Shown: piece by piece, positions 1 to 14,301 of the stretch
How the letters are laid out: each line of letters begins with the position of its first letter
Numbering within the stretch: the first letter of the stretch is position 1
Origin: Escherichia coli
Lineage (GTDB): Bacteria; Pseudomonadota; Gammaproteobacteria; Enterobacterales; Enterobacteriaceae
Assembly (NCBI RefSeq): GCF_003334405.1
Contig: NZ_QOWM01000030.1
DNA length: 14,301 nt
Direction: 5' to 3' (one strand)
Notes under the pieces: model-generated
Seen by the model: the letters and a program-made list of their open reading frames with translations, nothing else
Database searches by the model: none
Told to the model about the DNA's origin: nothing
Program-made: the position numbers and the translations under genes

Positions 1-1146
1 GCGCCAACCTGTGGCCTGTGCTGTAGCAATTTGAAGCTCACCAGATCCTACCTTTCTCCAGGTACCGGATTGGCACGAAAGTATTGCCCCTGTATTATCG
101 CGGCCTACAAGGCCGTTAGGCGAACATGATGCGCCAGCAACGGCAGTTCTTTCCAGTTGTAAGTATTCACCAGTATAAAGGCGACCATCAGCCCGAACAG
201 TACCGCCTTTCACCTGACCGCCGGTATAGATGCCCTTGTTGTTTACACTTCGAACCCATGATCCATCGGACATATAAAATCCGCCACCGTGAGTTTCATT
301 GAGCCAGCCTTTACTGTTACGAGTAATTAACCAACCATTATTACTTCTGATATCACCGCCAGCGGTGACATTTACGTCAAAGTTTCCGCTATTGCCTTTT
401 ACCTGACCGCTGAAAGTGCCATTTACACCATTCACATTGCCGCTGAAATTACCTGTCTGGGCATTTACTGCCCCAACGTTATTCAGGTTATTTGATCCCA
501 TATCAATGGCCGTGTGCATTTTGTTTAAGTCAGGGCGACCATTGACCTGGAATCTGTAAAGACGATCAGTGTCCTCAGCTGCACCACTAAGTTCATCTGT
601 CGATAACAATACGGCAATATGCCCGTTACCGCTTTTGGCACCATAATTACTTAAAGCTACTGACCAGGAACGTAATGCACCTGTGGCTGTTTTGCCGTCC
701 TGGATATATCCACCAAGACCAGTGGTAATATCCTTAGCCATCTGGATAAGTGCTTTCACTGGATAAGGGGTGCCACCACTGGATACAACCATTGCCTGTA
801 GTAATTCCGGGTTTTGGGCGTTTCGAACCACATATGCCTGTAACCGCTGCCCCTCACTGTTTGTCTCAGTAAACCCGCCGGACAAAAAGCCGGTATTTTT
901 CAGCATGGTTGTCGTGATGACGGCAGGGGTTGTTGTGGTACTACTGGTCTGGAGAGTCGTGTAGTTTTTCCCTATATAAGAGCGGGCCGCACTGGTCCAG
1001 TTGCTGACAAGACGTGCTTCAGTTTGCCACCCTTTGGTTTGAATATAGTCCTGCCATATGCCCGCTCCCCAGGCAATCAGGAGCATAACAATCAATAAAG
1101 CCGCGCCAGTTTCCAGCGATGCCCAGCCTCGGTCATATTTTTTCAT
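1..1146 (-). CDS. pilV: Type IV prepilin-like minor pilin/adhesin PilV, N-terminal constant region; 3' end lies beyond the window edge
   Basis: I translated the minus strand in this frame by hand at both ends (1146 to about 300, and 300 to 1) with no stop; the track omits it because it has no stop in-window. N-terminus MKKYDRG|[19 protein letters not shown] is a short-leader type IV prepilin signature (Gly at -1, Glu at +5, then a hydrophobic helix). The ATG at 1146-1144 overlaps the pilU stop (ATGA). Two Cys near the visible C-terminus (ASCSPNG...AILSCQSG). Last gene of a pilL-V array. Confidence 0.8.
58..76 (-). other. Candidate shufflon sfx 19-bp site-specific recombination site (minus strand GTGCCAATCCGGTACCTGG) inside the 3' part of pilV
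   Basis: The exact 19-mer is read directly and encodes S-C-Q-S-G-T-W at about PilV residues 357-363. It matches my recollection of the conserved 19-bp repeat bounding invertible shufflon segments in IncI plasmids (Rci recombinase target). Only one copy is visible because the window ends 57 bp further on. Confidence 0.5.
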
Positions 1147-1802
1147 CAGATTACCCATAGTGGTTGATAAAGATTATCCAGCAGCAAAAGGACATGGCCA
1201 AAACATAGCCATGGACCCAGAGGGCCTTCTTTATGCCCTTTTATGCACCATGTTGAATGCCATAAGACAAATCCTCCTGTACCCAGCAACACACACCATA
1301 TGGCGTTATATAACCCTGACCATGCGGTAATACCTGCAATAAGCCACAGGTCTCCAGTGCCAATATTAAGACGATGGCGGTTAACTAATTTATGAAGGCA
1401 GAATAAGACAATTGCAGCAGTGGCAAATTCTGTTGTACGGAACCACCATATATCAGTCGTGATTTGTGATAGCATTCCTGCAATTAAAAAACGCCGGGTG
1501 AATGTTCCTGGTAATAAACCTGTCAGTGCATCCGTTACCGCCATTTGCAGTATGAACGAAAGAATAAGGACAGCATGAATACGGTAGAGCAGTGGTGATG
1601 ATGATAAAATAATTAACGCCACAGCTATACTGTATAGCCATATTCCTGACAGAACAGCAGGGTGTGTCTTATACCAGAGATGTCCCGTATCAGATAAAAA
1701 ATAACGAACTCTGAATAGCAGAGTTCGTCCAATAATGGAAAATGTGAACATCAATGGCAGTATATAAACAGGGGATAGACTTATGCCTACGATTGTCTGC
1801 AT
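1146..1802 (-). CDS. pilU: Prepilin peptidase (A24-type, type IV prepilin leader peptidase)
   Basis: Polytopic membrane protein with two Asp-containing motifs (AVTDALTG and IGTGDLWL) like the catalytic Asp pair of prepilin peptidases. I prefer the ATG at 1802 (218 aa), which has AGGGAGG 6 nt upstream, over the track start at 1829, which lacks a usable RBS. Either start overlaps the pilT 3' end. Confidence 0.8.
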
Positions 1803-2347
1803 TGCCTGCCTCCCTGTCCGGGAAGACATATCCCTTTCATGTCACGATAAATTCTCCATATTTTATTGGCATATTGCTCTCTTGTTTCATGTCTGTCCTT
1901 ACGGAATCCGGCATTGTATGACCCAAGGCAATTCCAGCTGACGCCACATATCTGAAAATGTCTTGCCAGTATCCAGCTTCCTATATGGATATTAAGGCAT
2001 GGTTTGGTGATTAAATCCTCAGACTTTTTTATTACGCCCATGTTTATCAGCTTTGGAATATGGGTTGAGTTTATTTGCATCAACCCATAATCCGTGCTAC
2101 TGGCTTTACCTGTTTTTTTGTCCTTATTTATATTAATTGCGCCCGGCCTCAACGAAGATTCCCCGGCAGAAATAGCCTTCAATAATAATGGTTCAATTTG
2201 ATAGCGCGCGCCGGCAGCGGCAAAGCAATTGTCCCACTTGTTGGTCCAGATCTGTTTGGGGGCTACGTATGAAGCTCGGGCGGGTGGAATAAGAGAAAAA
2301 AGCAGGATTAACAAAATAAGTCTGAGGGGTACTGTACCCCCTGACAT
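1787..2347 (-). CDS. pilT: Secreted lytic transglycosylase (SLT domain)
   Basis: N-terminal signal peptide (MSGGTVPLRLILLILLFSLIPPARA), catalytic-type AGESS motif and DYGLMQIN motif characteristic of SLT lytic transglycosylases. AGGAG RBS 6 nt upstream of the ATG at 2347. Confidence 0.8.
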   Translation of the reverse strand: MSGGTVPLRLILLILLFSLIPPARASYVAPKQIWTNKWDNCFAAAGARYQIEPLLLKAISAGESSLRPGAININKDKKTGKASSTDYGLMQINSTHIPKLINMGVIKKSEDLITKPCLNIHIGSWILARHFQICGVSWNCLGSYNAGFRKDRHETREQYANKIWRIYRDMKGICLPGQGGRQCRQS

Positions 2348-2356
2348 TAAAACTCC

Positions 2357-2971
2357 TTAACCATTGATGGTGAAGATAAGTTTGTTTGTACCAGTGCTGC
2401 CATTATCTGCCTTGCATTGCGTACTGGCTTCTTCAGTAGTGACTTTTCCATCACTGTGAGCAGTACTGTTCAGGGTAATGCCGTTAGTTAAACCAGTTTT
2501 ACTGATCCGTGTGGCAATCTGGATACAGGCATCCTGTGGGACTTTATCATAGGTAACGGTAAAACCGTTGTTGAACCCTGATGTTGAAGCCGGGGCAACA
2601 GTTACAGCACCGCCCCATGCGTTATAGAGCGTTGCTGTACCAGATGTTTTGTCGCCCTGTACTGTCATCCCAGAGGGAACGGCCCCCATCTGAATGAGGG
2701 CACCTGTCATTTTGGCACTGCTGGTAAATGTATATCCATCGCTACCTTTTAGCAGGCTCTGGGCACTTGTGATAATTGTTTGTATATTTGCGGTTTCAGT
2801 TGCCACATTGGTTCTTGTACGTAACGCATACAAACTACCCAGAACAACGACTATAACAAAAAGAACAACGAGCGCTATTGTTCCCTGCTCCAAAATTCCC
2901 CATCCTTTATCATGAGGCTCATTCTTCTTATTATTTCCAGTTAAAGTGGCATTAATATTTTCTACTAACAT
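2357..2971 (-). CDS. pilS: Type IVb major prepilin with long leader peptide
   Basis: 23-aa hydrophilic leader ending DKG, then W-G-I-L-E (Glu at +5) and a hydrophobic helix TIALVVLFVIVVVLGSLYAL; two C-terminal Cys (QDACIQ...STQCKADNG) typical of a pilin disulfide loop. GAGGA RBS 5 nt upstream. Confidence 0.8.
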   Translation of the reverse strand: MLVENINATLTGNNKKNEPHDKGWGILEQGTIALVVLFVIVVVLGSLYALRTRTNVATETANIQTIITSAQSLLKGSDGYTFTSSAKMTGALIQMGAVPSGMTVQGDKTSGTATLYNAWGGAVTVAPASTSGFNNGFTVTYDKVPQDACIQIATRISKTGLTNGITLNSTAHSDGKVTTEEASTQCKADNGSTGTNKLIFTING

Positions 2972-2988
2972 AAATATCCTCGTTTTGT

Positions 2989-4086
2989 TTAAAAGTTACC
3001 CATGCTGTTGTCACTAATAGACTGAATATCCATAATGGCAAAAACCAGTAACATGAGAGACATGACAAGAAATATCAGCATAATTAAACGAATCACGTTT
3101 GCCCGTTTCTTTACACGTTGAAGTGTTTGACTAAGCCATCGTTGACCATAATTGCTGATTAGCTCTGTTGCGCCATCTCCCTGTAATAAAGACAGGAAGT
3201 TGGCTGCTTCCCTGGATGGGAACTGATAACCGCACTGACGCAAAGCCAGTCCAAGATGATCCCCCTGGCGGACGCGGTAAATAATGCTGTCAAGACGCGT
3301 GCTTAACCATGGTGATGCAAACTCCTGAAGAATGTTTAGTGAGTTGAGCGTCGTCATTTTGGCTTTCAGAAGTGCAGCCATATTCAGGAGAAATGTTGCT
3401 CCCTGTATATCCTGATAAATACTCCATGGCATTATCTTGTCGGCAAAAGTACGAACACTGTCAGGGCTTTTCCAGTTTGGCAGAGACCATGATATTAAAC
3501 CTGTGATCACTGCAAAAAGAACGGCACATATAGCGCCGTAATTATCGACAAAAACAGATAATCCATAAAGAAAACCAAGAGCACCACTCCATGAATCGGG
3601 GGAACTTATTTTGCTCAGTTCAGGTATTAGCTCTGTATTCAGAACATATAATGTCCCCGTCATCATGATTAACAATCCCACCGGATAAATAGCCATTTGC
3701 CATATAGCCTGATGGATTTGTTCTTTTGCATCTGTAAGAGTGGTGGCGAATTGCAGTGCATCCACAATTGAACCACTTCTTATCCCGGCGCTGATTACTG
3801 CGGCCTCTTCCTGAGGAACCCATAAACTAAGAGTATATTCCAGAGAGTTTTCGCCACTGTTTTCACGAAGAGACTCAATGCAGTCTGTGGCCAGTTCAGC
3901 AAAGGGATGCCATTTTCGTCCAAAGTCTGTCCAGGCATCCCGCATCTGTTCCAGTGCGGTCTTTAATGGCTGTTTATTTTCCAGCAGAAAACGCAGGGCT
4001 TCGTAAAACTGCACCCTGTAGGGGGCGCTGAACGTTTTTCTGACAATGAAACGCCTCAGCCGTTGACTGAAATTCATTTCACGCAT
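2989..4086 (-). CDS. pilR: Inner-membrane platform protein of type IV pilus/T2SS (GspF/PilC family)
   Basis: 365-aa polytopic membrane protein located directly downstream of the GspE-like ATPase, as in type IV pilus operons. Family assignment rests on position, size and hydropathy rather than a sharp motif. Confidence 0.75.
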   Translation of the reverse strand: MREMNFSQRLRRFIVRKTFSAPYRVQFYEALRFLLENKQPLKTALEQMRDAWTDFGRKWHPFAELATDCIESLRENSGENSLEYTLSLWVPQEEAAVISAGIRSGSIVDALQFATTLTDAKEQIHQAIWQMAIYPVGLLIMMTGTLYVLNTELIPELSKISSPDSWSGALGFLYGLSVFVDNYGAICAVLFAVITGLISWSLPNWKSPDSVRTFADKIMPWSIYQDIQGATFLLNMAALLKAKMTTLNSLNILQEFASPWLSTRLDSIIYRVRQGDHLGLALRQCGYQFPSREAANFLSLLQGDGATELISNYGQRWLSQTLQRVKKRANVIRLIMLIFLVMSLMLLVFAIMDIQSISDNSMGNF

Positions 4087-4098
4087 GTTGTTCTCCTG

Positions 4099-5652
4099 TT
4101 AGACATCATCGATGCTGAGGCGCTCGTCTTCGTCCAGAGGGATGATTCTGTCGGCTTCAAGAGGGTCTACCAGACCTTCATTGATACGGCGAAGAAGATG
4201 CTCTACACGACTGATGCCTTTCATGTTTTCCAGCCAGTATTTACGTGCTGCAACTTTGCCGCGTGTTTTCAGAATCTGAAATAAGCGGTTATCAGGTTCT
4301 ATCACCTCAGCAATTACAGTCCTGCCGGTGAGGCCTTTACCTATTTCACCGCGCTTTCTGCCGTTAATGATTACGTCGTGATTACATTCAGAGCATCCGT
4401 GAGGATTTCGGAACCAGATATTATCTGTACTGCAGAGTGAATCTTTATTGCAGTGCCGCTCAAGGTAATCACGCTCGTCGTCGCTAAGTTCAGGTGCTCG
4501 CGTTTCCCATGGAATACGGCAGGAGGGACACAGAGTTGGTACAAGGCGCTGGCTGATCATCCCAATCAGTAATTGCGCATCGCAAATAAGATCGGCATTC
4601 ATACCCATCGTAATCATCCGCTCCGGTATACCCAGAGCTGAGTTTGTATGTAATGTCGTCAGAACTATGTGCCCGGTCTGTGCCGCGTAGGTGGTTGACA
4701 TCATCGAGATAAGATCGCGCATTTCCCCTTCCATGATGGCATCAGGGTCAAGTCGCATTGCCGATGAAATAGCCCGACTCCATGCCAGTTTGACGGCATC
4801 TTCGTCGGATTTGTCGCAGATAATCGGAGTCTGTGTTGCTCCCAGTATCTGTCCTTCCAGCGGATCTTCGATTGTTAGCAGGTGTCGCCCCTGATTATCG
4901 TCAAGATATACACGGCAGGCGCTGCGTAACGTTGTCGATTTACCGGAACCGGTTGGACCTGACAGGACTATTTTTCCTTCCGGGCGGCGCAGCATTATGT
5001 TCAGCAACCGGATTTGTTCCGGGATAAAGCCCAGTTGTTTAAACGTGGGAACTTTATCTCCGTCATCGGGTATCAGGCGCATAACTGCAATCAGACCGTC
5101 TCCCGTAGGTCTGTGACTGTAGCGTGCACCAAATATTCCTATTTTTCGCATTAATTGTGGGGACAGGCGCGCATCCTGTTCCCTTTGAGGGAAGAAACTG
5201 GTTTCAGTGACATCAGCCATTGACAGAATGGCTGTTGCGCAAAGTGAATAGCCCAGTGCTGGTTGATCTTCATCTACAGTCTGCAGTTCACCGAATATTC
5301 TCATGCGAACTTTGAAAATAGACTCAGAAATTAAAAAATGAATATCTGAAGCACCAAGTTTTCTGGCCGTTTCAAAATAAGATAGAACTTTCTTCTCACT
5401 TTCACTGACATCAGCAAGATCTTTCAGATGAATAATTCGTTCTTTCGGGCCTCTGTTTTTTTCATCCTGACCTGCTTCCTGTAACTCCGACAACGAGACT
5501 ACTTTTGGGTTGATGCCCGGATATAATTTTAGCAGTTCCTGGAGATTACTTTGTACGTCAGGCCTTGTCCGCTGGTTTGTTTCTATAAGAATTTCATGGG
5601 TGTCTCCCCGGGATATAAAAAGGAGAGCATCCTTCAGATTATATTTATCCAT
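4099..5652 (-). CDS. pilQ: Type IV pilus assembly ATPase (GspE/PilB family secretion NTPase)
   Basis: Walker A LSGPTGSGKSTTL, His-box-like TLHTNSALG, and a tetracysteine motif CPSC...CSEC typical of GspE-family ATPases; 517 aa. Confidence 0.85.
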   Translation of the reverse strand: MDKYNLKDALLFISRGDTHEILIETNQRTRPDVQSNLQELLKLYPGINPKVVSLSELQEAGQDEKNRGPKERIIHLKDLADVSESEKKVLSYFETARKLGASDIHFLISESIFKVRMRIFGELQTVDEDQPALGYSLCATAILSMADVTETSFFPQREQDARLSPQLMRKIGIFGARYSHRPTGDGLIAVMRLIPDDGDKVPTFKQLGFIPEQIRLLNIMLRRPEGKIVLSGPTGSGKSTTLRSACRVYLDDNQGRHLLTIEDPLEGQILGATQTPIICDKSDEDAVKLAWSRAISSAMRLDPDAIMEGEMRDLISMMSTTYAAQTGHIVLTTLHTNSALGIPERMITMGMNADLICDAQLLIGMISQRLVPTLCPSCRIPWETRAPELSDDERDYLERHCNKDSLCSTDNIWFRNPHGCSECNHDVIINGRKRGEIGKGLTGRTVIAEVIEPDNRLFQILKTRGKVAARKYWLENMKGISRVEHLLRRINEGLVDPLEADRIIPLDEDERLSIDDV

Positions 5653-5662
5653 ATCACGTTAC

Positions 5663-6115
5663 TCAGAAAGTAAGGGTAGTGCCATCACTTAACGTGACGC
5701 CAGACAATGAGATCGACTTCACCGTGACGGATGTACCTGGAAGCTGGCTGCCAGTGGTGACGCTTGTCTGACGTCCATCAGCCATGCGAAGAACGGCATG
5801 AAGACGTTTATCTTTGCCGTTTATTTCCATAATGATGGGCAATTCTTTTCTGTTTTTCGGTGCCGTTTTCTCTGAAACTGATGGCAAGGGGGCGGTCACA
5901 CCAGAGAAACCTGAAACAGTTTCAGATGATGAAGTAACATCTGATTCTTCAAGTTGTTTCTGTAACTGTGCACCCTGAACTTTTGCCTGTAAAAGAATAT
6001 TCCGGTTTTGTTGTGCTTCAAGTTCTCCTATTGTGACAAGAGGTTGTGTTGTGGCAAATGAAAAACCAGAGAAGAAAAATATGGAAGGAATAATGAGTAA
6101 TTTACTTGGACGCAT
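5663..6115 (-). CDS. pilP: Pilus assembly protein PilP (secreted/periplasmic, function unknown)
   Basis: 150-aa ORF with N-terminal signal peptide (MRPSKLLIIPSIFFFSGFSFA); its start overlaps the pilO 3' end by 14 nt; position in the operon. Confidence 0.65.
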   Translation of the reverse strand: MRPSKLLIIPSIFFFSGFSFATTQPLVTIGELEAQQNRNILLQAKVQGAQLQKQLEESDVTSSSETVSGFSGVTAPLPSVSEKTAPKNRKELPIIMEINGKDKRLHAVLRMADGRQTSVTTGSQLPGTSVTVKSISLSGVTLSDGTTLTF

Positions 6116-7397
6116 ATATATGACCTTCTGAGGAATAACTGAAAGTACCGCCGTTTAATTCAAAATGGATATTGCTCAGACGGACGCCGGTATCCTGAAG
6201 TAAAGGGAAAAATTCATCAGGATTTACAGGAGTTGATAAACTGAACTGATATTCTTTCCATTTCTGAACAGGGGCTGGTTCACCATCGTTGCCTGGTAAT
6301 GGCTCCGGTATGGCTATTTCATTAATGGCCGGTGTTAACTGTTTTTTCTGAAACCACGTGAACACCCGCATCAGTTGTTCTGAGGGGGCCGGGACAGCCT
6401 CGTCCCTGCCGGGCAGGGACGGCAGTGGACGGGTTACAGAAACCTGGCGTGCACCATCTTTAAGGTTAAAGTCAGGAATAACACCAAAGATTTCTTTACT
6501 TCTTGCCAGAAAACCCTCAATGGTTCCTCCAGGCTGTCGTTCGTAAATCAGTGTGAATGTCTCAGGAGTACATGTTCCACCGGTAAGTTTCCAGCCTTCC
6601 AGTGCGACCGGTGACGGTTTTCGAAGGTCCGCGCAGGCTTTCAGAAAATCACTGATTACAGGTTGTGATGCCCATGGATGCGGGAGTTCTGGCGGTGGAT
6701 CGGGCTTTTTAAACTGCAATCTTGCCCGTGCAGCTATCTCCTCGGGCGTCGGTACGACATCCGGCTCTGGCTGAGTCATCCAGAATACAGTGCCTGCGCC
6801 GGCTGCTACTAAAAACAGTACGGCAGGCAGTGTGAATTTGCTGCGATTGCCGACAGTAAGTTTGCAACGGCGGAGATCTGCTGATGATAACCGGGTAATA
6901 ATACTTTCCCAGTTATCAGGATGTTCCAGAGACGATACAACCTGCCATTTTTCGGGGGGCTCTTCGTTCATCGCCAGAAAAAGGCTGACCTTTTGGGCAA
7001 CGTCGGCATCATTTCCTGATAAGTCAGCCATAACGGCAGGCTGGCCATTAATGGAAGCAAGGAATAAGAGCTCCTTATCGCTGTACCGGAAGACACCGTA
7101 TCCATTTCTGACCCATGAGCAGAAAGCCAGTGCCAGGGAAAAATAATGATTGCGTTCTGGCCTGGTCAGTATTCCTGTGCCGGTAAGGCGGCTGATCTTT
7201 CCACGGGAATTTCTGCTGCCTACAGTCACTTTCAGGGAGGTAAGCCGTCTGGGTTTTACATGAGACTTGTGTTTATGATGTGAGGGGACGCGCTGTTTTT
7301 TTACGACAGGAGTCCATTTAAGACAGGCAGCCCACACGCGATGATTTACTTTAGGATCTGCGAGAAGCACTACCGGGTTGATATCTTCATCAGCCAT
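6102..7397 (-). CDS. pilO: Pilus assembly protein PilO (function unknown)
   Basis: 431-aa ORF with AGGAGG RBS 6 nt upstream of the ATG at 7397; start overlaps the pilN stop by 8 nt; one internal hydrophobic segment (LPAVLFLVAAGAGTVFWM). Assignment by operon position and size. Confidence 0.7.
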   Translation of the reverse strand: MADEDINPVVLLADPKVNHRVWAACLKWTPVVKKQRVPSHHKHKSHVKPRRLTSLKVTVGSRNSRGKISRLTGTGILTRPERNHYFSLALAFCSWVRNGYGVFRYSDKELLFLASINGQPAVMADLSGNDADVAQKVSLFLAMNEEPPEKWQVVSSLEHPDNWESIITRLSSADLRRCKLTVGNRSKFTLPAVLFLVAAGAGTVFWMTQPEPDVVPTPEEIAARARLQFKKPDPPPELPHPWASQPVISDFLKACADLRKPSPVALEGWKLTGGTCTPETFTLIYERQPGGTIEGFLARSKEIFGVIPDFNLKDGARQVSVTRPLPSLPGRDEAVPAPSEQLMRVFTWFQKKQLTPAINEIAIPEPLPGNDGEPAPVQKWKEYQFSLSTPVNPDEFFPLLQDTGVRLSNIHFELNGGTFSYSSEGHIYASK

Positions 7398-9072
7398 TAT
7401 TGCCTCCTGACGGGAAAGTCGGGGTAATGATGATCACAAGTGTGCTGCGTTCATTTTTCCCGGTTTGTGAACCACCAAATAATGGATTTGCTGGCGTAAA
7501 CGTACCGGCTTTACTTGTCGTCGTATTGTTCTGATCGAAACCAGTAACGACAAGTGATTGCCCTTCTTTCAGATTGACCTTCTGGCTCAGTGAACGCAGT
7601 TTGGTATATGGCATTTCGATGTAACTGTTTCCGTCTTTTGACGTAAAGCTACGGATAGTTGGGGGATCAGACAGATTAAAGTTCATCTGCAACTGGAGAT
7701 TGCCTGTTTTCTGAATTAAAGGCAGCAGGGTCATATTGAATCCAGTGGTGATCATGCCCGGTGTTAATGTTGTTGTTGCTCCTACATCCGTAGTCGTAGT
7801 TGTTGCTGACTGGGCGACGTAAACTGTCTGATCTGCCATCTGGATAGGTACCGGCGTCAGGTTTGTGACAGTGCTTTCTTGTGAAGTTACAACGCTGACA
7901 TCGCCCTGTTCACTCAGTGCTTTAATCAGAAGGCTGGAACCGCTGAATTTGGCGGCATTCCCTGTTGCCGTATCCAGAATTGATACGCCTGCAGATGTAG
8001 CGCCTGTAAAATCTCCGCTTGCATTGTTCAACGTTGCTCCGGCGGAATGTAGCGATTTGTAAACAAGGTTCCAGTCCAGACCGAACTGCTCGTTTCTGGT
8101 ATTGCTGACGCTCAGAACCTGTACGTTCAGGGCTACCTGGCGGTTCATAATACTGTTTTGTTCGTCCACATATCGTGCGACGGCTTCCTGGACAGCAGGA
8201 GTATCAGTGACTGTCAGCGTTGAGCTCGATGCAGATAACCAGTAACGGCCTTTTTCTGGTGTCAGCATCGCTTCAATAGTTTTCCGGATGTCTTCATACA
8301 GGTCGTATTCCTGACCGACGGTTGTGCTCTGAGAGGACGTAGCATCACCGGATGCTGAGTTATCCTGGCCTCCTGTTGCCCCCATTGTGCTTGTTGAGCC
8401 AGAGCTGACGCTGGAACTGCTGCTGGTTTTGGTGTTCAGCATATGAAGTGGATACGTTCTGGTTTCAGTCAGATAGAATACAATCCGACCATTATCCATG
8501 CGCCAGTACAGACCGCTTCGGCTGGCCATCAGATCCAGAAGACCATTGATATCTCCCTGCCACATGAGGTTATTCAGCGTTAATGGCTGAGTGGAGGTAG
8601 TCATTGTTGTGCTGCCCAGGCTGCTTAACGGCAGACGACCATTTTCATCAGGTGCTGGTAGTGTCCCAGTCATCTGGCGGGTAGCGCCTCCTTCAAGAGT
8701 TGAATTGGCTGCGTCAGGGGTGATGATTACGGGGATGCCGCATACGGCAGTAATACGTTGCCCCAGTTCCTGTAGAGTGATCTCTCCTTTTCTTGCCTGC
8801 GTGATGTAGCAGGCCGGAGCTGTTTGTTTTTTCTCTCTTGATACCTGAGCGACCGGAACGGGGTTTATCCATTGATTATCGAGCCAGGTAAGAGCCTGTG
8901 ATTTGCGGGCAGAAAGGGCTGATACCTTTTCCCGTGCATGTGCTGAGTCTTCCTGTGCTTTTTTCTGCATTTTATTGATTTCGCTGAAAGTACATCCGGA
9001 GATGGAAAGAGCGACGGCGATCATGCAGGGGAGCACCGCCAGCTTCATTGAACGCTGGTGTGATTTTTTCAT
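7390..9072 (-). CDS. pilN: Secretin-family outer-membrane lipoprotein
   Basis: Lipoprotein signal with lipobox (AVALSISGC), C-terminal secretin-like region (...SLVVTGFDQNNTTTSKAGTFTPANPLFGGSQTGKNERSTLVIIITPT) and an internal Ser/Thr-rich linker; 560 aa. Start could alternatively be the internal Met at 9048. Confidence 0.75.
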   Translation of the reverse strand: MKKSHQRSMKLAVLPCMIAVALSISGCTFSEINKMQKKAQEDSAHAREKVSALSARKSQALTWLDNQWINPVPVAQVSREKKQTAPACYITQARKGEITLQELGQRITAVCGIPVIITPDAANSTLEGGATRQMTGTLPAPDENGRLPLSSLGSTTMTTSTQPLTLNNLMWQGDINGLLDLMASRSGLYWRMDNGRIVFYLTETRTYPLHMLNTKTSSSSSVSSGSTSTMGATGGQDNSASGDATSSQSTTVGQEYDLYEDIRKTIEAMLTPEKGRYWLSASSSTLTVTDTPAVQEAVARYVDEQNSIMNRQVALNVQVLSVSNTRNEQFGLDWNLVYKSLHSAGATLNNASGDFTGATSAGVSILDTATGNAAKFSGSSLLIKALSEQGDVSVVTSQESTVTNLTPVPIQMADQTVYVAQSATTTTTDVGATTTLTPGMITTGFNMTLLPLIQKTGNLQLQMNFNLSDPPTIRSFTSKDGNSYIEMPYTKLRSLSQKVNLKEGQSLVVTGFDQNNTTTSKAGTFTPANPLFGGSQTGKNERSTLVIIITPTFPSGGNNG

Positions 9073-9085
9073 GAATATATCCAGA

Positions 9086-9523
9086 TTAGTTAACGTAGAC
9101 GACAGAACCAGCAGTAATGCCTGCCGGGGGTGTCAGACCGGTTGCAGTTCCTGATAGCCAGGTGAGTTGCCCGTTTTGGAAGATCCCTATTAGTGCAGAA
9201 CCACGACTTTTTGAACGCAAAGTTTCAACAAGTCCTGGTTGTTCAGGCATCCATACCCACAGACGTCCCTGTTGTAACTGATGTTTAATTCGGGAGTCCG
9301 GAGTGACAGGGAGAGCCAGTTTATCTGAAGAAATTACTCCGTCCTGCTGGCCTGATACGTATCTGATATCATTGATTCTGTTAGCAATCATTAGTATCTG
9401 ACTTGCCCATACAGACGCACTTGCATATTGCTGGGCGTTCGTGGTTTCAGACATCTGCTGATTCTGGTAGCTTCCAGTGATAATCAGAATGGTCAGGCCG
9501 ACGGCCATGACCAGCCATCCCAT
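9086..9523 (-). CDS. pilM: Pilus assembly protein PilM (small membrane-anchored protein)
   Basis: 145-aa ORF with an N-terminal transmembrane segment (MGWLVMAVGLTILIITG); its start codon overlaps the pilL stop (TAATG at 9521-9525). Confidence 0.65.
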   Translation of the reverse strand: MGWLVMAVGLTILIITGSYQNQQMSETTNAQQYASASVWASQILMIANRINDIRYVSGQQDGVISSDKLALPVTPDSRIKHQLQQGRLWVWMPEQPGLVETLRSKSRGSALIGIFQNGQLTWLSGTATGLTPPAGITAGSVVYVN

Positions 9524-10590
9524 TAGCGACCATCCCTTGTATCAGAAACTGTAATGATGCACTGCATGCGAGAAGCCTGTGCGTATAAAGGTTTTTGCGC
9601 AGTCCGATATAACTCAAATACCTGCTCCATGGCTGATTCAAATGATCCCCGGAACATTAAAGGCGCATCCAGACGGTAATCGGTTACAGAAAGTGGCCAT
9701 ATGACCATCCAGTGCGTTGATGCCATGCTTTCGCATTTTGTTTCTTCTGCCCACTTGATAATGTTCTCTCTTAATGTGGTGCCTGCCGGCGCACGCCACT
9801 CTTTACCCTGAGATACCGGTTTAACAGGCGTTCCGGTCATGAGCGGGATAGACTTGACTGTGGAGCCGGTTGGAGTCGGGGTGGTGGCGGGCGTTGACGA
9901 AGATACGTTGTTTCCCCTGAATGGATTTCGTGGTTTGTTCTGGCTATTTGCTGTCGTTGGAGATTCAGGGGTAGTGGATGTGGTTACCATGGCTGCTGGC
10001 GAGATAGTGGTTGCCGTGTCCTGTGTCGGTGCAGCAGCTGATGTTGTGACGGTCAACGTTTTATTATCCCAGTCCAGATGGCCCCAGAGGTGTTGTTCTT
10101 CCAGCAACCGGTTCAGAGAACGGGTCCACTGATCATTGGCAGACCATGAAACCAGTTTGGTATTCAGCTTGGGCGTGGCTGCATTCTCTTGTCTGAATTT
10201 CCATCCTTCCGGTAGTAATGTTTTTATCCACTGACTGACGGTCCGGTTACGGGCCGTCGGCGATAGTGTTACAGGGGCGCTACCAGGCTTGCCTGTAATG
10301 ATTAACCGGGAGAAATTCTGACTTATTGTTGGTGAAGGTAACGGTCGGGATTCGCTAACAGGCTGTGCTGTTTTTACTGTCTCTGGCACGCTGACTCTCG
10401 GGGGCGGAGTTATTTTAGGTGGAGAAAGACGTTGTTGCGTAAGTGCCAGAACGCCAGCACTCTCACTGATTTGTCCGTCAACAAAAACCAGAGCAGGCGT
10501 ATCTGATGGTGCCACGTTATTACTGCCGGAAATTCCGGCACAGCCGGATAATAATGATGGCAGTATAAGTGTCAGATAGTTTTTTTTCAT
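9523..10590 (-). CDS. pilL: Pilus assembly lipoprotein PilL
   Basis: Lipoprotein signal with lipobox (LPSLLSGCAG); 355 aa; Pro-rich then Ser/Thr/Pro-rich low-complexity segment (residues about 181-258); GGAG RBS 8 nt upstream of the ATG at 10590. Confidence 0.7.
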   Translation of the reverse strand: MKKNYLTLILPSLLSGCAGISGSNNVAPSDTPALVFVDGQISESAGVLALTQQRLSPPKITPPPRVSVPETVKTAQPVSESRPLPSPTISQNFSRLIITGKPGSAPVTLSPTARNRTVSQWIKTLLPEGWKFRQENAATPKLNTKLVSWSANDQWTRSLNRLLEEQHLWGHLDWDNKTLTVTTSAAAPTQDTATTISPAAMVTTSTTPESPTTANSQNKPRNPFRGNNVSSSTPATTPTPTGSTVKSIPLMTGTPVKPVSQGKEWRAPAGTTLRENIIKWAEETKCESMASTHWMVIWPLSVTDYRLDAPLMFRGSFESAMEQVFELYRTAQKPLYAQASRMQCIITVSDTRDGR

Positions 10591-10623
10591 AACGGAGACT
10601 CCGTGTTCGTATATACGTGTTTG

Positions 10624-11214
10624 TTAATTGGTGTGAGGCGGCTGGAGAGGACGAATGACGACTGTCATTCCGTCCGAATGCAAATGCGGGAGAGACCACT
10701 GAAATAAGAGATATACAAAAGGAATTGATAATCTTTCATACAGACTTGTTTTCCGTGGGCATGTAATAACAGAGAAATTCAAACCATAAGATTCCAGTCT
10801 CTTTATAAGTTTATTTATTCTTGCAGGAGTAAAGAGATGTGAATGCATAACAATGGTTTCATCATTATTAATTGCTTTTGATATCAGAGAAAGTAACACA
10901 TCCCAGTGTTTCCTCATTGACTCCGGGCAACGTGTATCGGCATAGGGGCTAAGATGTATGCTTGATTCTTTACTGCCTTTTTTTTTCGTAAAGAATGTGA
11001 AGTTGTATTTAGATACAGACCTTACGATAAGAAGTACGCATCTGAAAAGTAGTGGGGAAAAGCAAATAATAACCACTATACAGAAATATAATATATAAGA
11101 TAGTGATATGTGGTCAGTGTATAGATAACGGAAGTATTGCCACGGGGTAGTGATGTACAGGCAAAAAGTACACCAAAGTAACCATAGATATAATGGTACG
11201 TTATTATTTTTCAT
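10624..11214 (-). CDS. pilK: Hypothetical membrane protein (two N-terminal TM helices plus soluble domain), possibly PilK-like
   Basis: 196-aa ORF immediately upstream of pilL on the same strand; its ATG overlaps the stop of the preceding ORF (ATGA at 11211-11214). Strongly AT-rich compared with the flanking pil genes. The pilK name is inferred only from position and size. Confidence 0.45.
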   Translation of the reverse strand: MKNNNVPLYLWLLWCTFCLYITTPWQYFRYLYTDHISLSYILYFCIVVIICFSPLLFRCVLLIVRSVSKYNFTFFTKKKGSKESSIHLSPYADTRCPESMRKHWDVLLSLISKAINNDETIVMHSHLFTPARINKLIKRLESYGLNFSVITCPRKTSLYERLSIPFVYLLFQWSLPHLHSDGMTVVIRPLQPPHTN

Positions 11215-11507
11215 ATTAGTTGACTTTTAATACTGTTTTCTATCACCACATTTTTATGTGTCTCATTTGGCACTTCGTACTGTTGGAAATATTGTTGGCG
11301 GCGGATGCGTGTCTGTTCACTGCTTTCTATTAACACCGCCATGGCGATTGCAAAGTATATGCAAATCAGGAAAATCCAGAACGCGTTTGGTATCTTCCAA
11401 AAAAGTGTGGACAGTTTGTTATGTGGTGAAACTAAAATCGGAGAAAGGATTCCACAGACAATCACAATAGCGATGGTTAATTTAACTAGAAAGAACATGG
11501 TAAACAT
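11211..11507 (-). CDS. pilJ: Hypothetical small membrane protein (two predicted TM helices), possibly PilJ-like
   Basis: I prefer the ATG at 11507 (98 aa, MFTMFFLVKLTIAIVIVCGI...), which has GGAG 7 nt upstream; the track start at 11564 is a TTG with no RBS. AT-rich. Translationally coupled to the downstream pilK-like ORF. Confidence 0.4.
   Translation of the reverse strand: MFTMFFLVKLTIAIVIVCGILSPILVSPHNKLSTLFWKIPNAFWIFLICIYFAIAMAVLIESSEQTRIRRQQYFQQYEVPNETHKNVVIENSIKSQLI
11453..11500. repeat. 48-bp direct repeat, copy A (inside the 5' coding region of the pilJ-like ORF)
   Basis: cacagacaatcacaatagcgatggttaatttaactagaaagaacatgg matches copy B at 11595-11642 at 44 of 48 positions, offset 142 bp. 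Confidence 0.8.
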
Positions 11508-11594
11508 CGTTAATCTCCATGATAAAAGGGAGAGAGGTAATAAAGAAAATAAAGATGGCAACAAACGGCTAAATTAAAATCGTTAAAAGGTGTA

Positions 11595-11642
11595 CACAGA
11601 CAATCGCAATCGCGATGGTTAATTTAACTAAAAAGAACACGG
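11595..11642. repeat. 48-bp direct repeat, copy B (intergenic, upstream of the pilJ-like ORF)
   Basis: cacagacaatcgcaatcgcgatggttaatttaactaaaaagaacacgg; similarity to copy A extends weakly a further ~12 bp to the left. On the minus strand it would encode a degenerate copy of the pilJ-like N-terminal helix (VFFLVKLTIAIAIVCV) without the ATG. Confidence 0.8.
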
Positions 11643-11682
11643 CCCCCACCCGTTTTGACGAGGTCTTTTGTTTTTGTTGTGT

Positions 11683-11937
11683 TTACGACAGCCAGTCCTG
11701 TAGATGCTGATGGCGGGAGCTGCTGCCCTTGTGCCAGCGGCAGTGGCTGCCGGGAGCACGCTCCAGTCGGAACAGAAATCGGTTGTCGCGTAGTACCACC
11801 ACGATACAGTTATCCGGCGTGCAGAAACGTCGGGCAAGCTCATCGGGGTCTGTCGGTGTTTTCGTTGAAAACAGCCTGCGTTTGCAGTGTGCGTCGACGA
11901 CCAGTATTTGCAGTCGTCCGGGATGTTGCTGTGGCAT
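11683..11937 (-). CDS. Hypothetical small protein (84 aa), Cys/His-containing, GC-rich; possibly PilI-like
   Basis: Internal ATG at 11937 is preceded by GGAAGGAG with a 6-nt spacer, a much better start than the track ATG at 11982. The ORF is GC-rich, unlike the adjacent AT-rich block. No recognisable domain. Confidence 0.4.
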   Translation of the reverse strand: MPQQHPGRLQILVVDAHCKRRLFSTKTPTDPDELARRFCTPDNCIVVVLRDNRFLFRLERAPGSHCRWHKGSSSRHQHLQDWLS

Positions 11938-12108: not shown

Positions 12109-12792
12109 TCAGTGTAATGTGATAGTCGTCTGTTCCTGTGTTGCACCCCAGACATCTTCTGGCAGGCTGGGCAGCCCGATAAATAGGGTGTGAAAGAGGG
12201 TTTCTCTGCGTTCGATCCCGAATTGATGTTCGTATCCTCTCACCACCTGAAATCCTTCGTCGGAGAATATTAACTCTGCCGTTTCCAGAAGCTGCATAGT
12301 TTTGCGGTGTAGTGGAGTGATCAGCTGCAACGTAACTGGTGCCCTCATATCGCCTGTCGGTAGAAAACACTCTTCGGTGCGACTTAGTTGTAGCAGATGG
12401 CGTTTCCCGGAACAGGCCCGTTCAATGGATTCATTGAACACCCTCTCAGGCCATGGGCAGACATAAGTGCGCCAGCCTGCTTTCTGTAATTTACCCAGCG
12501 CAGCCCGAAAACGAAACAACGGACATTCCCCGACAGTGGCAGAGCTGAGAAAGAGCGTATTCAGCGTTCCGATGATGGGAATATTGCGATCTTTTTCGGT
12601 CAATGCTTTTAACGCCATGATTTCGCCAGGGAGACTACGGAACTCAGGATGTCTGCTGGCACCAGAAAGCCATTCAAGCAGGTAATGCCGTAATCCGGTT
12701 TCACTGGTTATATTGTGGTTTTCCTGTGCCGTTTTCAGGGCATTCAGTGCACACCAGAGCAACTGGCGCACGGGATGTTCTGTCGTGGTCAT
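12109..12792 (-). CDS. Hypothetical protein (227 aa), possibly a transfer-region regulatory protein (TraC-like)
   Basis: ATG at 12792 with AGGA 7 nt upstream; lies directly downstream of the NusG-paralog gene and its terminator. I recognise no motif; the TraC-like suggestion is based only on remembered IncI1 gene order. Confidence 0.5.
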   Translation of the reverse strand: MTTTEHPVRQLLWCALNALKTAQENHNITSETGLRHYLLEWLSGASRHPEFRSLPGEIMALKALTEKDRNIPIIGTLNTLFLSSATVGECPLFRFRAALGKLQKAGWRTYVCPWPERVFNESIERACSGKRHLLQLSRTEECFLPTGDMRAPVTLQLITPLHRKTMQLLETAELIFSDEGFQVVRGYEHQFGIERRETLFHTLFIGLPSLPEDVWGATQEQTTITLH

Positions 12793-13010
12793 GCGAATGT
12801 CCTACTGTGAGATGAAAAGAAGACCGGTATCCGTTCTCTCCGCCACACGTGATGGCACGGGCCGGCCTTTGATAAAACGAATCAATACTCTGGGGTGAAG
12901 CCTTTTATTTCTTTCGCCATTAAGAAATACACAGTTCCATCAAAAGACAGGGGGAGTCCATGGTGGGGATGGCTCCGTGCAGGCTTCACTCCAGAATATT
13001 CTCTTGAATT

Positions 13011-13040
13011 GAAAAAAGCCCGGCCCGAAGGCCGGGAAAT
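13011..13040 (-). terminator. Rho-independent terminator downstream of the NusG-paralog gene
   Basis: Perfect 7-bp GC-rich stem (cccggcc at 13019-13025, ggccggg at 13030-13036) with a 4-nt loop; on the minus strand it is followed by a TTTTTT tract (13012-13017). It sits 6 bp after the stop of the 13046..13600 ORF. Confidence 0.6.
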
Positions 13041-13045
13041 ACTGG

Positions 13046-13600
13046 CTATGGGATGTTTACAAGGCGCTCCATAAAGCCGTGATGTTCGGCATTTGATACC
13101 AGTTCCAGGAGCAGGGATATCCTCGACTCAGGCTGGAGAGTATTTTCCATTCTGAGGAGATACTGATATTGTGCTTTTGTCAGCCATATGCTGGAAGCCG
13201 CATTCAGCTCTTCCCTGGCTCCCGGATTTAGCACAGGGTCCGGGTAAATCTTCATTAATCCATCAACAATATCTTTATTGATGGGTTTTATTTCACCGCC
13301 AAACTTCACGAAATCAATGAAGGCGCTATGTCGACGTAATGCCGATACTGGTTGAATGTCAAAATTAGCCAGAATAAAAAAGTACCCAGGAAAAATAGCG
13401 AATATTCTTTCACGGTAACAGCACCTGGAGTCTGCCCGTCTTATCTTTCTTGTTATTAATGGAGTCCATGGTACGACGTTTTGCTCATTCAGCCATGAGA
13501 ATAAAGATTCTCTGTTTTTGCCGGCTGTATTATATTGCGCAAGATACCAGTTCCGGTTATTCAGGTGTTCTATATTCACGAAGTTCAACGCTCCGCGCAA
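13046..13600 (-). CDS. NusG/RfaH-family transcription antiterminator paralog (TraB/ActX-like)
   Basis: Recognisable similarity to the RfaH N-terminal domain: NWYLAQY (compare RfaH SWYLLYCK), FPGYFFILANFD (compare FPNYLFVEFD), FVKFGGEIKPI (compare FVRFGASPAIVP). The start is uncertain: the track start at 13600 is a TTG, and a GTG at 13579 is an alternative. Confidence 0.75.
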   Translation of the reverse strand: MRGALNFVNIEHLNNRNWYLAQYNTAGKNRESLFSWLNEQNVVPWTPLITRKIRRADSRCCYRERIFAIFPGYFFILANFDIQPVSALRRHSAFIDFVKFGGEIKPINKDIVDGLMKIYPDPVLNPGAREELNAASSIWLTKAQYQYLLRMENTLQPESRISLLLELVSNAEHHGFMERLVNIP

Positions 13601-13994
13601 AACCGATCCATGATGGACGATTTTGCGATGTCAGGCGAATATGCTAAATCATATGTCTGAAGCAGTGTCCAGCCCATATCTGGATAAACTGCAGTTCTGA
13701 CAGGCATATAACCAGCAGACTCTAGTACGTTCTGTATCGGTGATTTGGCGAACTCACAGATAAAGAACGGCTAAGCACTAATATCAGCAATACAGTGGCA
13801 CAGTATTGTGATACGCGAAATAAAACATCAGCACGTCAGTTCAGAGTAAGGTCGCCATATATCGGGCATGAGCCAGATACAAATAACTGGGACACCGTCT
13901 GAAGTGATTTGCTTTATTAAAGTAACTTGTGCTTGGTGTTTATGTTTATCAATTTGGGATCGCCTGTAAAGTGCAAAATGCAATTTCCATGAAA

Positions 13995-14016
13995 GTGTCC
14001 CCTTTAATGGGGACAC
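13995..14016 (-). terminator. Stem-loop (possible terminator) immediately downstream of the LuxR-type regulator gene
   Basis: Perfect 8-bp inverted repeat gtgtcccc / ggggacac with a 6-nt loop, 4 bp after the stop codon at 14021-14023; on the minus strand only a short U-tract follows (TTTCAT), so terminator function is uncertain. Confidence 0.35.
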
Positions 14017-14020
14017 CTGT

Positions 14021-14301
14021 TCACATTTTTTCGTTTTCTTTAGCTGTATTGCTAATCATGAAAACGAAAGTTCGCATCAGCACAGCAGAGCGAAGTGCAT
14101 CATATCCTTCCAGATTTAAATTCTTCAGGCTTCGCTTCAGGTAGGTTCGTACCGTTTCGGGAGAAAGCCGGCAGTTCTGGGCAATGGCGTCGTAAGGAAC
14201 ACCCATTGCGTAAAAAACGCAGACTGAGGTAGCCTGAGTTTAACGGACACTCCTTCCTGAAATAGAATGGCATCAGAAGGAGCTAATAATGAGCAGAAAA
14301 A
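14021..14301 (-). CDS. LuxR/GerE-type helix-turn-helix transcriptional regulator, C-terminal part (N-terminus probably beyond the window edge)
   Basis: YDAIAQNCRLSPETVRTYLKRSLKNLNLEG fits the LuxR-type HTH pattern (compare GerE KEIASELFISEKTVRNHISNAMQKLGV). The frame stays open upstream of the track ATG (14206) to the window edge by my hand translation, so the true start is unresolved. Confidence 0.5.

Follow-up and report, generated by a model that had tools for sequence, protein, structure and literature searches.

The closest described systems to the locus considered here are the RfaH-like NusG paralogs of IncX plasmids and the traABCD region of IncI plasmids. The ops-like hairpin of the IncX3 paralog PrfaH, defined by mutagenesis and electrophoretic mobility shift assays, spans positions −42 to −25 relative to the start codon of PrfaH itself, and TraB of IncI plasmids was named in the same work as a PrfaH homologue (PMC11880322). 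The traABCD region of R64/ColIb-P9 goes back to Kim, Funayama and Komano (1993), as that study is represented in later papers (PMC4288162; PMC5801416; PMC11880322). Both traB and traC are essential for transfer of IncI1/I-complex plasmids and were termed regulators of transfer-gene expression (PMC10286972; PMC4288162). Deletion of traB from pESI abolished conjugation and lowered the pilV, pilS and pilT transcripts about 4-fold, and TraB was noted there to be NusG-like (PMC5013300). In the literature searched, we found no report of a TraB recognition site or of an antitermination test in IncI plasmids. The present work concerns a stretch of 14,301 nucleotides (nt) from Escherichia coli (contig NZ_QOWM01000030.1), hereafter the window, and in particular a conserved structured leader directly 5′ of its traB gene. 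Judged by sequence, the best candidate for a TraB recruitment site is this leader and not a site in that of traC.

An original prediction for this DNA had placed a helix-turn-helix (HTH) gene, a stem-loop, a NusG paralog, a terminator, a gene of 227 amino acids (aa) and the pil genes on a single strand, and had proposed antitermination control of the latter. All of these elements were found, on the minus strand, and the gene identities and order that it gave were correct. Over its rightmost 2.5 kb the window is 98–99.6% identical to the traA/NusG-family (traB)/traC/pilI region of IncI1 and IncI-gamma plasmids; these more than 1000 near-identical plasmids come from E. coli, Salmonella and Shigella (1345 plasmids at a query coverage of at least 80%; 1135 records at an identity of at least 99%). 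The traA-traB-traC-pil synteny and the near-identity to R64-type plasmids are those of the IncI1 traABC module, and by this comparison the window carries the traA-traB-traC regulatory head of the IncI1/R64-type transfer regulon, a region already published. A complete 99-kb IncI1 relative carries all of its transfer genes, from traA through trbC, co-oriented over about 50 kb; the tra strand is the minus strand in the window. The order of regulator, NusG paralog, terminator, 227-aa gene and pil genes was also found in distant plasmid lineages. The argument turns on these features:

13579–13730, minus strand: conserved structured leader of about 152 nt, defined by a covariance model, covariation and the single-sequence fold.
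13587–13609, minus strand: ops-like 3′ tail GGATCGGTTTTGCGCGGAGCGTT, candidate TraB recruitment site, single copy in the window.
13046–13579, minus strand: traB, an RfaH-like NusG paralog of 177 aa with a GTG start, assigned from profile matches and homologue starts.
13011–13036, minus strand: intrinsic terminator T2 between traB and traC, stem 13019–13036 and U6 at 13013–13018.
12109–12792, minus strand: traC, 227 aa, always the next gene after traB.

A first alignment of five traB loci, whose proteins share 52–92% identity with TraB of the window, contained an invariant block GGATC..TT..GCGCG(G/A)AGCGTT directly 5′ of traB. Because one lineage carries a 1-nt indel inside this block, its conservation is not that of a coding sequence. 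Ten more lineages (from Citrobacter, Enterobacter, Erwinia, Pluralibacter, Yersinia and others) were added from species-representative genomes, and RNAalifold on the enlarged alignment returned a 22-bp long-range helix, an inner 4-bp helix, a 3′ hairpin and a single-stranded tail. In the window, the 22-bp helix 1 is formed by arms at 13701–13723 and 13637–13659 and encloses the inner helix 2 together with a variable hairpin (13669–13683), and the 3′ hairpin (13599–13624, containing GGAUC) is followed by the tail. The window leader folded on its own adopts the same shape (−50.1 kcal/mol, z −2.2).

A covariance model (R1) was built from the leader alignment and 442 kb were searched with it. The window leader scored 124 bits (E 5e-38) and was the sole match in the window. 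Matches were found 5′ of every traB examined with at least 51% TraB identity, plus two extra copies on IncI1, and nowhere else in the 442 kb; in the lineage with 42% TraB identity the only match, about 175 nt 5′ of traB, was weak (18 bits). Three lineages that were retrieved through TraC and lie outside the model (Pectobacterium, Serratia and a Klebsiella-type metagenome contig) scored 98–115 bits, and in these the leader ends at or next to the traB start. Lineages without traA (loci L003 and L151) still have the leader. A pattern scan of metagenomes was discarded as a source of diversity: most of the 80 loci tested were chance matches, and the 31 matches confirmed by the covariance model scored like the IncI1/IncK copies, with no visible new diversity.

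Covariation statistics were computed on 18 distinct sequences in an alignment fitted to the covariance model. The predicted partners pair in 89.3% of cells, compared with 34–43% when the partners are slid, and the observed values were reached in 0 of 500 shuffles. Changes on both sides that preserve pairing occur in 22 of the 33 leader pairs, and an unfitted MAFFT alignment submitted to RNAalifold gave the same helices with 19 compensatory pairs. About 14% of the leader cells are G-U pairs, as counted from the pair table, and the fold is therefore specific to the sense strand. The leader thus carries compensatory substitutions on the transcribed strand, as a structured cis-regulatory RNA does. 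It is transcribed as part of the traB leader, since the elements needed for traB expression map upstream of it, at 14020–13967. A search of Rfam 15 gave no family matching 13579–13730 even at E up to 1, and the two matches in the region were at chance level and outside the leader. The literature searched made no mention of the structured leader or of its three-copy distribution, the one text match to the motif being a cloning primer, and the leader was apparently undescribed before. A 40-codon open reading frame (13585–13707, minus strand) overlaps it and stops at a TGA within the tail, a few bases short of the traB start; by sequence it is probably non-coding, because its frame is broken by a 1-nt indel in the IncK2/Z relative.

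The ops-like tail ends 7 nt 5′ of the traB GTG and is conserved 5′ of traB in all lineages with at least 51% TraB identity; part of the leader tail reads GCGCGGAGCG. Set against GGCGGTAGCGTG, the tail (GGCGCGGAGCGTT, or TGGCGGAGC in Pectobacterium) resembles ops, and its GGAG reads GAAG in some lineages. The search for an ops-like motif conserved in the leaders of related plasmids, which had been suggested as a check of the original prediction, thus came out negative at the candidate in the traC leader and positive directly 5′ of traB.

The distribution of the leader extends beyond traB. On the 99-kb IncI1 plasmid NZ_CP012923.1 the 23-nt tail with its leader occurs exactly three times, always on the tra strand: copy 1 about 340 nt 5′ of traA, copy 2 immediately 5′ of traB, and copy 3 about 209 nt 5′ of traH, the head of the Dot/Icm-like type IV secretion system (T4SS) genes. 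Similarity among the three copies continues for about 130 nt further upstream, at 73% column identity. The relative CP057041.1 (55 kb, typed IncI1) has no pil genes; a YadA-like adhesin gene comes next after its traB-traC, with the T4SS genes immediately behind, and only one leader copy, highly diverged (24 bits), is present, which fits the mechanism put forward below. On NZ_CP012923.1, terminator-like hairpins follow copies 1 and 3 immediately (49638–49660 and 28910–28929, minus strand); they are weak (z −0.7 to −1.0) and share GAGCG with the tail, that of copy 1 being GGAGCGUUAAGUUUUGACGCUUUUUU, and for copy 1 an alternative pairing CGCUUCG/CGGAGCG is possible, in an attenuator-like layout. 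Just 5′ of copy 1, at 49804–49833, lies a perfect 11-bp inverted repeat, TTGTTACACAA-N8-TTGTGTAACAA, which sits between the replication region and the Hft segment and may be an operator. Primer mapping ruled out copy 1 as the target of the pESBL 'Hft' insertions and of the R64-drd11 point mutations X1 and X2: Hft begins just 3′ of copy 1, and X1 and X2 fall inside Hft, outside the leader.

On the other side of traB, the clean intrinsic terminator that had been predicted after the NusG paralog proved canonical. T2 has seven G-C pairs, a UUCG loop and a run of six U residues (−15.8 kcal/mol, z −3.3), and by sequence it is a G+C-rich stem-loop with a U-tract of the kind expected of an intrinsic terminator; it was the first-listed terminator-like site when the whole window was scanned. 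All 13 lineages compared have a G+C-rich hairpin and U-run 3′ of traB, at distances that range from a few nt up to about 65 nt past the stop codon, the U-run being weaker in Yersinia ruckeri. The stems differ, with CCCGGCC/GGCCGGG, CCCCC/GGGGG, CCCCGG/CCGGGG, GCCCCTG/CAGGGGC and others. This conservation of position while the stem sequence changes argues that T2 is functional.

The identity of TraB was examined by profile and structure comparison. Its start is the GTG at 13579 and not the TTG at 13600, since 13 of 13 homologues begin MNIE or MDIE. The protein matched Pfam NusG (PF02357) over residues 17–114 (E 2.5e-4), which assigns it an NGN domain of the NusG/Spt5 superfamily, and NCBIfam RfaH (TIGR01955) with E 1.1e-10. 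The TIGR01955 score of 41.7 bits lies under the curated cut-off of 144.5, as does the score with NF006534 (36.2 bits, cut-off 124), and TraB is not placed in the RfaH equivalog. A TraB profile run against PDB retrieved 9ik0 (RfaH-like chain, 157 residues; E 2.5e-12) and E. coli RfaH (E 1.4e-5, nearly full length), and the alignment with RfaH extends across the C-terminal domain. By these comparisons TraB is an RfaH-like paralog and not RfaH itself.

A TraC homologue of 219–233 aa stands directly after traB in every locus, and TraB-TraC is therefore a conserved two-gene module. TraC of the window had no match in Pfam; DUF2913 (PF11140) matched weakly in two to three of 16 members of the TraC family. 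AlphaFold2 modelled TraC with a predicted local distance difference test (pLDDT) score of 86, as a helical N-terminal half and an alpha/beta C-terminal half. Compared with PDB, the model had no meaningful structural neighbor (best TM score about 0.2–0.3) and the protein no sequence relative, and a fold search of the AlphaFold database returned TraC and DUF2913 proteins only. By these comparisons, TraC is probably a distant relative of DUF2913 proteins.

The remaining features of the region lie upstream of the traB leader, between traB and traC, and downstream of traC:

14225–14301, plus strand: left end of an IS600-like (IS3-family) insertion sequence, with terminal repeat TGAGGTAGCCTGAGTTTAACGG..., a ribosome-binding site and an orfA ATG pointing away from traA.
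14021–14224, minus strand: remnant of traA, an HTH gene of the LuxR/sigma-70-region-4 type of which the 3′ two-thirds survive, identified by the TraA annotation in relatives.
13967–14020, minus strand: 54-bp segment with the 22-bp palindrome GTGTCCCCATTAAAGGGGACAC (13995–14016), located by mapping primers oYo454 and oYo461 onto the window.
12888–12996, minus strand: second long-range helix, in the traC leader, arms 12980–12996 and 12888–12904.
12836–12844, minus strand: ops-like candidate GGCGGAGAG, in the loop of a weak hairpin adjoining traC.
11683–11937, minus strand: pilI, from the list of open reading frames and the annotation of syntenic plasmids.
1–11937, minus strand: pilI and the downstream thin-pilus (type IVb) genes to pilU and part of pilV, the presumed downstream targets.

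Positions 14301–14218 match IS600-family elements of Shigella and E. coli plasmids, and homology to IncI1 begins at 14225; the IS600-like end has replaced about 27 N-terminal codons of traA, with the junction at 14224/14225. The intact TraA homologue (95 aa) matched Pfam Sigma70_r4_2 (E 1.9e-5) and GerE/LuxR (E 2.3e-4), both weakly, so that the LuxR/GerE-type HTH is assigned via this homologue, the window copy being N-terminally truncated. The insertion cuts traA and traB off from the Hft segment, the native traA promoter and leader copy 1. Nearby transposon insertions are known to turn IncI1 plasmids into 'superspreaders'.

The stem-loop predicted after the HTH gene is present at 13995–14016 on the minus strand as a perfect 22-bp palindrome, GTGTCCCC-ATTAAA-GGGGACAC (−17.7 kcal/mol, z −4.1; 0 of 200 shuffles fold as well), followed by a poor U-tract of only UUUC. 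TraA-dependent expression of traB::lacZ needs a 54-bp segment, and overexpression of TraA increases transfer (PMC5801416). By primer mapping this segment is window 14020–13967 and includes the hairpin. The hairpin is more likely part of the traB promoter or operator than a simple terminator, because it lies inside the 54 bp necessary for TraA-dependent traB::lacZ expression, and the LuxR-type TraA may use the palindrome as its operator. At the equivalent position, the hairpin of a Citrobacter relative is a different one and has a T-run. A scan for sigma-70 promoters on the tra strand near traB and traH found nothing convincing.

The helix in the traC leader is 16–17 bp long, and 9 of its 17 pairs show compensatory changes (RNAalifold, eight lineages). 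Conserved blocks inside it read CATGGAC..CCCTGTC and TGGCG(G)A..GAA. The helix is present in most lineages; the short intergenic regions of L003 and L005 are missing it. Further downstream, the traC-pilI gap (12109–11938) differs among relatives: the window plasmid is without traD, and some IncI1 relatives have in this gap a 0.7-kb segment with traD or a hypothetical gene (L002, 2913–3479).

The mechanism that we lean towards, if only slightly, is that TraB loads at the leader and that TraB-dependent read-through carries transcription past T2 into traC and pil; both steps we infer. It builds on what the sequences show: which genes are present, how the leader folds, how far it is conserved and where its copies lie, and that the terminator is conserved. 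Transcription of traB would start upstream of 13967, in the region that requires TraA, and pass through the folded leader of about 152 nt, where TraB would board the elongating RNA polymerase. Contact could be made with the tail as non-template DNA, in the manner of RfaH at ops and of PrfaH at its IncX3 ops-like site, or with the leader RNA, in the manner of LoaP. The modified polymerase would then pass T2 into traC and the pil block of about 12 kb and resist intrinsic and Rho/H-NS-type polarity en route. Because TraB would thereby promote read-through from its own gene, a positive feedback loop would result. On complete IncI1 plasmids, the leader copies 5′ of traA and traH would extend this scheme, the traH copy providing the same entry to the T4SS operon, and TraC would be an obligatory partner of TraB. 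That the NusG paralog controls pil positively, as had been predicted, is consistent with the published traB deletion in pESI and its drop of about 4-fold in pil transcripts (PMC5013300), and by our analysis the antitermination reading for IncI1 is a reasonable and partly supported one.

Several observations pull the other way. Copy 1 sits 5′ of the Hft segment, which alone drives traA::lacZ. The covariance model search left nikAB and trbABC without a leader, yet the nikB transcript increases in Hft insertion mutants, so part of the regulon must be controlled otherwise, perhaps via TraC or TraA. RfaH mainly opposes Rho-dependent polarity and has a modest effect on intrinsic terminators, and for that reason T2 could be an attenuator of fixed strength, not subject to TraB. 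The ribosome-binding region of traB overlaps with the tail, whose conservation could serve traB translation or RNA stability. The tail is only loosely similar to the IncX3 site, no covariance-model match falls in the IncX3 leader, and the canonical 12-nt ops (GGCGGTAGnnTG) had no match within three mismatches in the traB or traC leaders. Finally, AlphaFold2 modelled TraB from a 14-sequence alignment with a pLDDT of 51, the C-terminal helices being predicted at pLDDT below 50; this is too poor for a fold search and for assessing whether the C-terminal domain is of the autoinhibitory, all-alpha RfaH type that refolds into a KOW barrel.

Some of these points lead to a different role for the leader, namely that of a cis-regulatory RNA which governs translation initiation or mRNA stability of traB itself and is not a loading site. 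It might then be a target of Hfq-dependent small RNAs, a substrate of RNase III through its 22-bp helix, or a thermosensor, with TraB acting elsewhere or free of any site; we regard this set of possibilities, taken jointly, as unlikely. Long perfect helices are typical RNase III targets, and the tail ends so near the start codon (7 nt) that GGAG/GAGAG could be a Shine-Dalgarno sequence. Preliminary hfq data implicating small RNAs in traA and traBC expression have been mentioned (PMC5801416), and conjugation of pESI is temperature dependent (PMC5013300). Against this stand the extra copies, which have no start codon at a comparable distance (the next genes are about 340 and 209 nt away), and the fact that the leader tracks traB across very divergent plasmids while its GGAG becomes GAAG in some lineages. 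If, on the other hand, TraB acts like chromosomal RfaH, solely against Rho/H-NS polarity, then T2 would be a constitutive attenuator that does no more than set the traB:traC ratio, independently of TraB. The known biology of RfaH speaks for such an activity, as do the slightly AT-rich composition of the window (43–51% G+C) and the pairing of the paralog with H-NS-type silencers in IncX plasmids. We nevertheless find it rather improbable, since all 13 lineages retain a strong terminator immediately 3′ of the paralog gene, PrfaH of IncX3 was reported to help RNA polymerase past a potential termination signal (PMC11880322), and LoaP-type paralogs suppress intrinsic terminators.

The leader could also act as DNA, either as an operator or promoter bound by TraA or TraC, or as a single-strand initiation or single-stranded DNA promoter structure on the transferred strand. 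Three co-oriented copies ahead of three transfer gene blocks would suit this, as would the activation of traB expression by TraA (PMC5801416) and the identity of the transferred strand with the tra sense strand, deduced from gene order. However, the compensatory changes in the 22-bp helix and the G-U pairs indicate a single-stranded fold of the sense strand and not a duplex site, the promoter determinants lie upstream of the leader, and the traA-less lineages L003 and L151 retain it; moreover, a single-stranded DNA promoter on the tra sense strand would yield antisense RNA, and there is no reason for a priming site always to abut the traB start codon. A DNA-level role is on these grounds very improbable. 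Least credible of all is the site originally put forward for TraB recruitment, GGCGGAGAG in the traC leader, whose coordinates had been given as 12835–12843, one base off the actual 12836–12844. It shares GGCGGAG with the tail consensus (the Pectobacterium tail being TGGCGGAGC), is kept in IncI1 and the 92% K2/Z relative, and survives as CGGAGAG in the 64% relative. It is, however, more than three mismatches away from the 12-nt ops consensus, conserved in IncI1/K-type relatives only, and missing in the lineages with about 52–53% TraB identity, whose traC leaders otherwise align. The window holds 11 ops-like matches where 7.2 ± 2.6 are expected, and three occurrences of the 7-mer GGCGGAG where 1.07 are expected, a count reached in 19 of 200 shuffles; GGCGGAGAG is thus not above chance. 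It also lies downstream of the terminator that it would have to suppress.

Returning to TraB loading at the leader, we offer one wider interpretation tentatively, as possible but on present grounds doubtful: that the leader, as RNA or as structured RNA together with the non-template DNA tail, recruits a plasmid NusG paralog and belongs to a class of structured recruitment elements not described before, and that with the DUF2913-like TraC it makes polymerase termination-resistant at up to three entry points; the entire co-oriented conjugation regulon (about 50 kb) of IncI-complex plasmids and their relatives in Enterobacterales would be gated in this way. If true, this would be a structurally distinct addition to the few known recruitment signals of NusG paralogs, which are ops, the IncX ops-like site and the LoaP hairpin. 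IncI-complex plasmids are major carriers of extended-spectrum β-lactamase (ESBL) and AmpC resistance in E. coli and Salmonella; the traABC region sets the IncI transfer rate, and 'superspreader' mutants map beside it. A leader 5′ of traB that is repeated at traA and traH makes the question of how TraB and TraC switch on about 50 kb, which dates from 1993, directly testable, and it is a concrete target for blocking conjugation.

In comparison with known systems, the window has the same locus as the R64/ColIb-P9-type IncI1 traABCD regions (including pESBL and pESI) and shares the order traA-traB-traC-pilI with them; it differs in that its plasmid is without traD and its traA is truncated by the IS600-like insertion. 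Like TraB, IncX PrfaH/ActX (PMC11880322; R6K ActX preprint 10.64898/2026.02.23.707533) is a plasmid RfaH-like paralog heading transfer genes. PrfaH has its site in its own 5′ untranslated region near the start codon, with read-through of a termination signal proposed, and the position of the tail is alike; as far as sequence can tell, TraB likewise stands at the head of the transfer genes with a candidate site in its own 5′ untranslated region. The two proteins, however, share only about 32% identity over the N-terminal domain, and the IncX site is an 18-nt hairpin without a large upstream structure, to which the TraB leader model does not match. Homology of the leader to the IncX3 PrfaH site was considered and rejected, the tail resemblance being loose and a covariance-model match lacking. 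TraC and the strong terminator immediately 3′ of the paralog gene are additions of the IncI system relative to IncX.

With E. coli RfaH, TraB has in common the NGN domain, a near-full-length alignment and a tail (GGCGCGGAGCGTT) that resembles GGCGGTAGCGTG, and both proteins control long horizontally acquired operons, conjugation genes included. Unlike RfaH, TraB scores below the NCBIfam cut-off, lacks a canonical ops, and is encoded by a gene linked to its target instead of standing alone; its candidate site, unlike ops, forms part of a covarying, RNA-type structure about 152 nt long. A structured transcribed leader with intrinsic terminators downstream in the operon is also described for LoaP, the NusG paralog of Bacillota, although TraB has no sequence relationship to it (NCBIfam LoaP E 0.0017; 18.5 bits, with the cut-off at 125). 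The structured leader can likewise be compared with HK022 put and EAR, two RNAs of processive antitermination. The pair TraB/TraC finds its closest parallel in UpxY/UpxZ of Bacteroides, where a NusG paralog and a small partner are the first two genes of the operon that they control; UpxZ inhibits non-cognate UpxY proteins, whereas TraC is positively required and probably belongs to the DUF2913 superfamily.

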